DNA from: a virus
Lineage: Duplodnaviria > Caudoviricetes
DNA: 64,000 bases
Virus record (IMG/VR): IMGVR_UViG_3300044655_001017
Strand: one strand, 5' to 3'
Positions 33,644-34,844 of the stretch are shown in pieces. How positions within the stretch are numbered: the first letter of the stretch is position 1; every line of letters starts with the position of its first letter. The notes beneath the pieces were generated by a model. That model did no database searches and was not told the DNA's origin. It saw only the letters and a program-made list of their open reading frames with translations. The translations under genes were made by a program, and so were the position numbers.

Positions 33644-33672
33644 TTGACTTCCTTCCACTATTACTGTATAAT
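33644..33672 (+). promoter_or_regulatory. Sigma70-type promoter for the RNase HI gene
   Basis: TTGACT-N17-TATAAT. A GATAAATA late box is also present at 33702-33709. Confidence 0.75.
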
Positions 33673-33752
33673 CGTTTCTAACAAGGTGAGTAAGATGTTC
33701 AGATAAATATTTGTTTAAGAACTAAACACAATATAATCTAACACAAAACACT

Positions 33753-34169
33753 ATGGAAGAACTCGTAATAATTTATACAGACGGCGCATGTGTACCAAAT
33801 CCAGGTAAAGGCGGATGGGGAATTACTATGCAATACAGAGACGTCATTAAAGAATTTTCTGGAACAGAACCACAAACTACTAACAATCGCATGGAAATGC
33901 AAGCTGCTATCGAAGCACTTACAAGATTAAAAAGACCATGCAAAGTTAGGATTTATTCTGATTCAAAATATCTTGTTGACGGTTTTACTCAATGGTTTCC
34001 TAATTGGAAAAAGAAAGGTCGCACAGATTACTTAAATCGTGACTTGTGGCTTAAATTAGAAACTGTTGCTGCAGCACACGATATAGATTGGCAATGGGTT
34101 AAAGCTCATGCAGGTAATCCTGGTAACGAACGCGCAAATGATTTAGCAGAAGCTGCTGCTCGCATTTAG
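33753..34169 (+). CDS. rnhA: Ribonuclease HI, bacterial type (138 aa)
   Basis: YTDGAC.PNPG.GGWG, TTNNRME..AAIEAL, YSDSKY, WVKAHAGNPGNERA. The residue equivalent to E. coli Asp134 is Asn. Confidence 0.95.
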   Translation: MEELVIIYTDGACVPNPGKGGWGITMQYRDVIKEFSGTEPQTTNNRMEMQAAIEALTRLKRPCKVRIYSDSKYLVDGFTQWFPNWKKKGRTDYLNRDLWLKLETVAAAHDIDWQWVKAHAGNPGNERANDLAEAAARI

Positions 34170-34200
34170 CCACTTTTAATTCCTTGTTCAAAACACATTT

Positions 34201-34782
34201 GTAAATACTGAACAAAACACACAAAACACTTTTATTTTAACACTAACATAAGGTTGGCAGGCCGGTTTGTAATACTGCTGAGACAAGTTCTGGAAACGAG
34301 AACCGCTGCTCAAATCGTTGATTGTGCAACGGCTTTTAAACACTACCCTCACGCGAGAGGATGCCAAAAGCAACGTCCATTGACGTCAATGCTTTGTTTA
34401 ATCGGAATGGTGGTCTAGCTGTATTTGAAAAAGAATACATAGGCTTTAAATCTGTAGAATACTAGTAATAGTAACAATTTTGTAATGATATACAAAGCAC
34501 CTGAAAGTTATATCTTAAAAATACCTGTAAGTGTTGGTCCGGAGGTAGCCAATAGCAAAAGTCTACAGTCATATAAATTCTTACTGCAAATTCCATGGCG
34601 ATGGGGTGAAATCATGCATCTATTTTTATTAGGGTGCATCTGACTTCAAAAGTGATATCTCTTTATTAAAATAATTAAATTATAAATGAATTAATATAAT
34701 TTAATTGTTTTTTCATTATTGTTGTTAGAGAGAATAGTATTGAGCGATAGCGAAATACAGATGAACGTTAGTTCATCTTTTA
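34201..34782 (+). ncRNA. Candidate large structured non-coding RNA or origin element
   Basis: No credible ORF. GTAAATA late box at 34201, at least nine hand-identified helices, and an 8-bp terminator-like hairpin plus U-run at 34759-34782. Family not recognised. Confidence 0.55.
34759..34782 (+). terminator. Intrinsic terminator-like hairpin
   Basis: AGATGAAC-GTTA-GTTCATCT followed by TTT. Confidence 0.6.
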
Positions 34783-34844
34783 ATATGAAATATATTTTTT
34801 AATAAATATTCATATTATATAAGGGATATCCTTAAAGGACTATT

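Follow-up and report, generated by a model that had tools for sequence, protein, structure and literature searches.

A candidate folded non-coding RNA of uncultured T4-like phages, its variants and its locus

What occupies the widest intergenic gap of a phage genome in which genes otherwise follow closely upon one another? The stretch analysed here, IMG/VR record IMGVR_UViG_3300044655_001017 (64,000 nucleotides of Caudoviricetes DNA, hereafter the window), belongs to a T4-like myophage as judged by its gene families, and just 12 of its gaps reach 40 bp. The widest, at 34170-34844 (675 bases), is gene-free and follows rnhA, the gene for an RNase HI. A sequence-only reading of this locus had proposed a structured RNA with its own promoter and terminator, either a primer RNA matured by the adjacent RNase HI at an R-loop origin or a new class of large phage non-coding RNA (ncRNA). 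Our comparative analysis suggests that 34246-34782 is probably the gene of a folded ncRNA of ~540-570 nt with a functional RNA product. It would be one variant (W, for the window clade) of a superfamily whose hosts are uncultured aquatic T4-like (partly jumbo) phages of lake, estuary and marine origin.

Conservation and folding of the gap after rnhA

A protein search with the RNase H identified 18 viral contigs that contain the gap as well, and a metagenome scan contributed six more, for a total of 13 distinct sequences. In mean pairwise comparisons of the 11 full-length sequences, to which all regional identities refer, rnhA is 0.89 identical, the core of the gap (34246-34660) 0.90, and the two 3' hairpins 0.96, with values of 0.68 for an AT-rich linker and 0.38 for the downstream gene of 292 aa. 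Divergence by codon position in rnhA is 0.06/0.06/0.21, that is, mainly at third positions; the core shows no 3-base periodicity (0.10/0.08/0.11) and contains invariant runs of 36, 29 and 17 nt. No open reading frame (ORF) in 34170-34844 is kept across the relatives, whether sought as a small protein or in alternative frames, and the frames break at different points. Comparison of relatives therefore shows a gap that is, by these measures, non-coding yet conserved like a gene. The features of the W variant are listed below in window coordinates; M and P are related RNA types described in the next section.

34200-34207, plus strand: putative late-type promoter-like box TGTAAATA, seen in alignments; relatives carry TGTAAATA, TATAAATA or CATAAATA
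34208-34245, plus strand: A/C-rich leader, variable and partly deleted in relatives
34246-34282, plus strand: family signature ACAUAAGG with hairpin P1 (34254-60 / 34275-81); matched by an M-only hidden Markov model (HMM) at E 9e-6
34281-34312, plus strand: helix P1b around hairpin P2 (34287-91 / 34299-303), from RNAalifold
34315-34332, plus strand: hairpin P3, with compensatory changes in 3/6 pairs
34336-34401, plus strand: two-hairpin domain with a 6-bp closing helix (34336-41 / 34396-401), enclosing a CACUACCC...GAGGAUG hairpin with GNRA loop (34346-60) and a second hairpin (34367-95); the alignment has a GCGA/GCAA loop swap and a compensated stem in relative L007
34404-34594, plus strand: central domain closed by GGAAU/AUUCC, with a variable hairpin (34412-45), helices 34452-58/34562-68 and 34478-87/34550-60, a 36-nt invariant block (34497-34532) and a GGAGG-loop hairpin around 34533-53
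34595-34660, plus strand: 3' core of nested helices and a hairpin (34615-21/34632-38), then UCUGACUU...AAAGUGAUAUCU; colinear with the M-type hairpin and GUCUGAC block
34661-34736, plus strand: AT-rich variable linker, 24% GC, mean identity 0.68
34737-34758, plus strand: tandem-GA hairpin GUAUU-GA-GC-GAUA-GC-GA-AAUAC, a superfamily signature (P-type model, nhmmer E 4e-10); its inner pairs covary and its outer stem varies as GUUU/AAAC, GUUC/GAAC or GUGUU/AACAC
34759-34782, plus strand: terminal hairpin and short U-run, a probable terminator or 3'-end hairpin; 8 bp at 34759-34778, then UUU, terminator-like by scan, with compensatory changes at all 8 pairs across 74 distinct sequences
34801-34808, plus strand: late-type box AATAAATA of the next gene, which marks the end of the RNA unit

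The alignment of the W clade carries more structure than its controls. Its structure conservation index was 0.845, compared with 0.74 +/- 0.04 in 60 column shuffles and 0.71 for the reverse complement, and it contains 10 compensatory pairs as against 3.3 +/- 1.6 in column shuffles and 6 in the reverse complement. The predicted structure signal is strand-specific and above column shuffles. Judged by compensated pairs, the strongest helices are 34315-20/34327-32 (three pairs) and 34373-77/34382-86 (two), followed by 34478-87/34550-60 (three) and 34737-58 (two), and the hairpin at 34412-45 has been swapped for unrelated hairpins in two lineages. Covariation in the central domain, scored with covariance model (CM) R1 on alignment A5, was 0.116 vs 0.073 in shuffles (0/500), with slid controls at or below 0.067. 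The 3' module gave the clearest separation, with all 10 of its 10 pairs compensated, 96.6% of cells paired, and a covariation score of 0.58, against 0.144 in shuffles and no more than 0.18 in slid controls. A further model, R2 (RNAalifold on a MAFFT alignment), retained P1 alone and was left out of testing. These comparisons show hairpins held by compensatory and G-U changes, on the plus strand only.

Much of what the sequence-only reading had picked out by eye withstood this analysis. The gap holds no ORF conserved in relatives, begins with a late box (TGTAAATA at 34200-34207), closes with an 8-bp hairpin (34759-34778) followed by UUU, and is conserved in related phages with covariation above shuffles. 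RNAalifold recovered the hand-found helices at 34287-34303, 34316-34331, 34413-34444, 34614-34639 and 34737-34758, and the TGTTGGT/GCCAATA helix includes one covarying pair. The proposed GCTTTT/AAAAGC pairing is possible but competes with an alternative, and the two are indistinguishable because both are invariant.

We entertained the possibility that the locus acts as DNA, as a protein-binding array, pac or recombination site, or that it is a decayed protein gene. High conservation without excess folding stability and a 14-nt palindrome at 34378-34391 would fit a DNA-level element. In most relatives, however, C-to-T changes disrupt the palindrome but preserve a G-U pair, which fits a plus-strand RNA; moreover, the signal is strand-specific, and hairpins that are replaced wholesale are still hairpins. 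Frame remnants of a decayed gene were not found, and we regard this group of explanations as hardly credible. A CsrA-type sponge was dropped as well, since the 4-5 GGA motifs counted by eye in ~420 nt are close to chance level.

A syntenic superfamily that includes the Polynucleobacter-1 motif

The RNA locus is fixed: it lies after the gp55-gp47-gp46 recombination/late-sigma module and before the baseplate-hub genes. CM R1 found no match in 63 distant hub loci, and the wider family was found through synteny only, by way of a baseplate-hub protein alignment from which 80 loci were fetched. Relatives at 50-59% hub identity share the order hub, o71, variable gene, ORF-free gap, 141-147-aa gene, o107, gp46, gp47 and gp55. 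Their ORF-free gaps are mostly 430-560 nt (largest 674) and mutually homologous over their whole length, and neither rnhA nor a PDDEXK gene was found in these loci, in which the 141-147-aa gene encodes a SegE-type GIY-YIG domain protein. The first 141 nt of the gaps match Rfam RF01718 (Polynucleobacter-1) with 58-111 bits, and we refer to this type as P. In the 16 P-type loci that were read, the RNA begins 0-40 nt past the upstream stop. The Polynucleobacter-1 motif was described from 16 examples downstream of GOS11034 genes, with no phage source (Weinberg et al. 2010, PMC2864571, Additional file 1); our literature search found no other papers mentioning it.

One locus, L116, is atypical in that its 5' end resembles the first hairpin of the window RNA. 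A degenerate pattern derived from it led to a third type, M, with more than 118 further viral contigs among the matches listed. M-type RNAs occupy the same locus in more distant phages (hub identity 31-41%, gp46 ~60%), and their first hairpin begins right after the TAA stop of a GIY-YIG gene of 147-151 aa; nine M-type loci gave no Rfam family matches. The superfamily totals more than 200 uncultured phage contigs with one fixed locus, and the RNA is often conserved better than the surrounding proteins in what is a very large group of uncultured T4-like phages.

How firmly is the window RNA tied to these types? The M-only HMM, run on both strands of the window (128 kb), gave just two matches, at 34246-34282 (E 9e-6) and 34737-34906 (E 1.7e-4), and the P-type HMM matches at 34738-34787 (E 4e-10). 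M-type L256 aligns to positions 45-571 of the 601-position W profile (nhmmer, E 1e-6), and the order of the blocks is preserved. A joint alignment of 55 sequences is almost invariant over its first 40 nt; at the fourth pair of P1, W has A-U where M has G-C, and M retains the topology of P1b and P2, using GUG/CAC or GAG/CUC and a wide range of P2 stems. CM R3, which describes the 3' module, found 80 matches in 1.0 Mb, at most one per locus and none in 20/100 sources; it gives the window 69 bits, the window having been part of the R3 seed. The M type (L155-L272) is thus like the window in the 5' signature ACAUAAGGUURGCRGGCCRG with P1, P1b and P2, in its colinear body, 3' module and locus, and unlike it in abutting the GIY-YIG gene with neither spacer nor late box. 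These profile and alignment matches show homology of both ends of the W RNA, and by one colinear alignment of its whole length, to M-type RNA; they likewise show that its 3' module is homologous to that of P-type RNA, the type with Rfam Polynucleobacter-1 as its 5' domain.

Several further likenesses connect the window RNA with RF01718. The P-type RNA, with RF01718 as its first 141 nt, occupies the locus of the window RNA between the gp46 module and the hub genes, and both carry a 3' tandem-GA hairpin followed by a terminal hairpin. To the eye alone, the 5' layouts look alike: three hairpins come first, followed by a 6-bp helix around a CACUAYCC...GGAYG hairpin and another hairpin. The two-hairpin domain at 34336-34401 seems in this way to resemble RF01718 positions 82-138. 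The two differ in that RF01718 follows a GOS11034 / SegE-like GIY-YIG gene, whereas the window RNA follows RNase HI, itself preceded by PDDEXK_15, at a syntenic locus. RF01718 describes only 141 nt of a unit that spans ~450-570 nt. We take the window RNA to be a diverged syntenic counterpart of the RNA containing RF01718, a superfamily variant invisible to Rfam. The orphan 141-nt motif of 2010 proves to be one end of a structured RNA of ~0.5 kb. Of the proposal of a new class of large phage ncRNA, the large phage ncRNA stands, and the novelty is reduced to that of a superfamily variant with one branch partly catalogued as RF01718.

Other known RNAs provide looser comparisons. GOLLD, ROOL and OLE and the abundant ~800-nt ncRNA of ICP1 (PMC12286853; PMC7567579) are, like the window RNA, large multi-domain phage-borne ncRNAs that are not riboswitches. 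The window RNA differs from them in having no Rfam match, no tRNA genes nearby, a smaller size and folding stability at background, and it gives no sign of multimers. GOLLD, ROOL, OLE, HEARO, group I/II introns, tmRNA and RNase P were rejected for lack of a covariance-model or ARAGORN match. The sequence-only reading, which did not recognise the element as a tRNA, tmRNA, RNase P RNA or group I/II intron, likewise agrees with the empty ARAGORN output and with the Rfam search, which returned nothing at gathering and only noise at E <= 10 (snoR122, c4-a1b1). A blastn search of 50,697 phage records found no match to the W, M or P RNAs; in Serratia phage BF, Pectobacterium CBB and Pseudomonas Callisto, the matches to CM R1 all had E > 1; and pattern scans (a 17-mer, two two-block patterns and a metagenome 18-mer) returned just the W clade and chance matches in coding DNA.

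The types also differ in short repeated words. Twin 7-nt boxes, one after CUC and one after AUCU, ~60-70 nt apart, are identical in 32/34 P and 71/76 M sequences and change together (AGAUAAU, GGAUAAU, ACAUGAA and ACGUGAA, for example, in P-type L092-L154 and M-type L155-L272). In place of the second box the window carries variable AT-rich sequence, the start of its linker. It doubles a 6-nt word, UGCAUC (34615-20 and 34635-40, 20 nt apart), that overlaps a hairpin; both copies read UGCACC in the L017/L018 lineage, a single event. Separately, the P-type middle domain (for example L095:7425-7524, minus strand) weakly resembles Rfam cow-rumen-2 (RF02947; 23.7 bits, E 0.055), with the words CCGCCGUCAU and GGAUGACCGCC in common, a likeness that may reflect a shared sub-motif.

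Upstream genes, transcription and possible roles

Given the fixed locus, the genes around the RNA bear directly on what it might do. They are as follows.

28168-29007: late sigma gp55
29220-31993: gp47/gp46
31990-32718: GIY-YIG/NUMOD3 homing endonuclease
33118-33639: PDDEXK_15 nuclease
33644-33672, plus strand: sigma-70-like promoter TTGACT-17-TATAAT ahead of rnhA, 11/12 matches
33753-34169, plus strand: RNase HI gene rnhA, 138 aa (PF00075, E 4e-44)
34845-35723, plus strand: hypervariable downstream gene of 292 aa, outside the RNA, mean pairwise nucleotide identity 0.38
35948-36772, minus strand: baseplate-hub gene
41044-42795: gp20 portal

PDDEXK and RNase HI genes lie upstream of the RNA only in the W clade; P and M loci have a GIY-YIG gene instead. 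The words AACAC..ACAUAAGG in the window resemble the last codons and stop of a lost GIY-YIG gene, retained in the flank of the RNA. Because W alone has PDDEXK and rnhA, and words resembling the end of a GIY-YIG gene remain, RNase HI appears to be a late arrival beside an older RNA, and its adjacency looks like an accident of one lineage, with no working partnership. The exchange amounts to a natural experiment in which two unrelated enzymes took the place of the upstream nuclease and a late-type box was gained, with the RNA ends kept and the middle remodelled. Since both RNA ends were kept through the swap, it argues for a function of the RNA's own; it also points to the indispensable parts of the RNA, and three diverged variants are available for structure determination. 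In one M-type locus, L167 (RNA at 8944), a PDDEXK_15-like gene with 52% identity to that of the window lies 727 nt upstream, so the nuclease swap may have recurred or have intermediates.

The main proposal of the sequence-only reading, a persistent R-loop that the neighbouring RNase HI would cut, thereby priming replication in the manner of ColE1 RNA II, has to be weighed against this history. The length of ~550 nt is like that of the ColE1 RNA II and T4 oriF-oriG primers, an RNase H gene adjoins in the W clade only, gp46/47 are nearby, and the AT-rich 75-bp stretch at 34661-34736 could unwind. Against this, homologous RNAs in more than 150 fetched loci have no rnhA within ~5 kb, the adjacency is not conserved, and the box is of the late type. 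Cumulative GC skew has no inflection at the element, and its minimum follows the strand switch near 28 kb; no origin signature is seen, and selection acts on RNA hairpins at the extreme 3' end, where a primer would be consumed. As rnhA adjacency is limited to the W clade, the RNase H-coupled idea is unsupported; we consider such an origin highly improbable, and the link of this RNA to RNase H and R-loop replication falls away.

A nuclease gene is always immediately upstream, and M-type RNA begins at its stop codon, an arrangement that raises the possibility of an RNA that binds, guides or inhibits the upstream nuclease (mostly GIY-YIG, here PDDEXK), with the omega or reRNAs of IscB/TnpB or the type III antitoxin RNAs as analogues. 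Between lineages with different nucleases, moreover, it is the middle part that differs most. Yet the nuclease family was swapped and both RNA ends stayed, antisense targets in the window are limited to chance-level 11-13-mers, and the GIY-YIG proteins are small, domain-only enzymes. We consider a role as nuclease partner very unlikely.

Is the locus transcribed? Boxes of the form NATAAATA or TGTAAATA stand 27-51 nt ahead of many late genes in the window. The earlier claim of an RNA with its own promoter survives for the W clade, which has a late-type box, but not for the superfamily, as no such box lies within 90 nt upstream of the RNA in any of 115 M-type loci. No terminator-like site separates the promoter at 33644-33672 from 34759, and read-through from the strong rnhA promoter into the RNA is therefore expected. 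The rnhA gene itself is preceded by this near-consensus sigma-70-type promoter and by a late-type box, GATAAATA (33702-33709), a combination that suggests early and late expression. A MotA-box reading of AAUGCUUUG was dropped, as a suitable -10 element is absent. Contigs from lake metatranscriptomes span 33892-34594 and 34261-34566, and an estuary RNA run assembled 34419-34594 alone, at depth 38. The stop of two RNA contigs at 34594 is not read as an RNA end, because a variable site there can break assemblies, and RNA runs X23 and X25-X29, whose shares are small, are not counted as evidence.

These data leave room for a cis-acting 3' untranslated region that serves the upstream operon only, through 3'-end protection, as a platform for termination or processing, or as insulation from the convergent transcript of the hub. 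M and P RNAs start at or within ~40 nt of the upstream stop, M has no late-type box (0/115), one RNA contig spans rnhA and the element, and the unit ends where convergent genes meet. A multi-domain structure of ~450-570 nt, with invariant blocks that outdo the neighbouring proteins, nevertheless exceeds what 3'-end protection needs. The RNA was also retained when the upstream gene was exchanged, the W clade has its own late-type box and, as a weak point, the estuary run assembled only the element core. On balance we judge a purely cis-acting role to be unlikely.

Several observations weigh against the ncRNA gene that we favour. Its single-sequence minimum free energy is no better than that of dinucleotide shuffles (plus strand z = +0.22, minus strand -0.71), so the hand-found helices alone are not beyond chance and the support for folding is comparative only. 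With 13 distinct sequences from about 5 lineages, the W clade is narrow, and numerous helices show no variation at all; the core covariation is modest because of this narrowness. M homology of the middle part of the W RNA consists of one weak full-length nhmmer alignment. The RF01718 model misses the window at gathering (37 bits) and at E <= 10 (33600-34900 and 34225-34425), and since the Rfam model does not detect it, the window RNA is outside RF01718 as defined. The RNA evidence takes the form of assembled contigs, in which ends, strand and level are not visible and DNA carry-over is possible.

We interpret the locus as the gene of an RNA that would be transcribed by read-through from the rnhA promoter and, in the W clade, also from the late-type promoter at 34200, and that would end at, and be stabilized by, the two 3' hairpins. 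It would act as RNA, whether a stable 3'-terminal product of processing or a trans-acting ribonucleoprotein or decoy-type RNA, with the invariant, weakly paired blocks 34385-34413 and 34497-34532 as candidate contact surfaces. Its independence from RNase HI would follow from replacement of the ancestral upstream GIY-YIG gene by PDDEXK and rnhA, with the RNA staying in place. A bolder proposal, which we find quite doubtful, is that the superfamily is a new phage ribonucleoprotein RNA class tied to the recombination/DNA-end-processing module (gp46/47 plus a small nuclease), whether as an RNA guiding, timing or restraining the upstream nuclease or as a GOLLD/ROOL-like RNA-only assembly. If this were true, the W variant would record the re-tailoring of the RNA when GIY-YIG gave way to PDDEXK and RNase HI.

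The 3' boundary differs in detail among the types. Most M and P loci have the sequence ATAAATA after the terminal hairpin. In many M-type RNAs (for example L178:7016-7077 and L196:2385-2446) the U-run is missing and the next gene's ATAAATA box comes immediately after the hairpin, and here the terminal hairpin may be the RNA 3' end or a processing site rather than an intrinsic terminator. A riboswitch or attenuator leader of the downstream gene was rejected, since a conserved late-type box separates hairpin and gene, and some relatives have the RNA but lack the gene.

Genomic setting and neighbouring genes

The cultured phages nearest by portal protein (~49% identity) belong to the Serratia BF / Pectobacterium CBB group of jumbo phages. 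Among the relatives, a complete genome of 372 kb with terminal repeats has the RNA once; the RNA is present as one copy per genome at its fixed locus, which is also where it lies in the window. The element-bearing stretch is present in lake-water metagenomes.

Two genes on the upstream side come and go. The GIY-YIG/NUMOD3 gene at 31990-32718 separates gp46 from o107 in the window and, at 95-96% identity, in L001/L081, and was not detected in the other relatives, in which gp46 leads straight to o107; it looks like a mobile insertion. A gene of ~1.8 kb (606 aa) lies between the PDDEXK gene and rnhA, on the opposite strand, at L001:2161-3981 (minus) and also in L002-L006, L017 and L018. It is absent from the window and has no Pfam match.

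The downstream 292-aa gene has no Pfam, PHROG or family match; its product is at most 29% identical or undetectable in relatives, and the gene is missing from some P-type loci. A template-like repeat that would link it to a diversity-generating retroelement or another repeat system was looked for, and none was found. The gene contains a Pro/Thr-rich repeat (35501-35617) and hydrophobic stretches. The second-largest gap of the window (42796-43152, 357 bp) follows the portal gene and has a TGTAAATA box 47 nt before the next gene.

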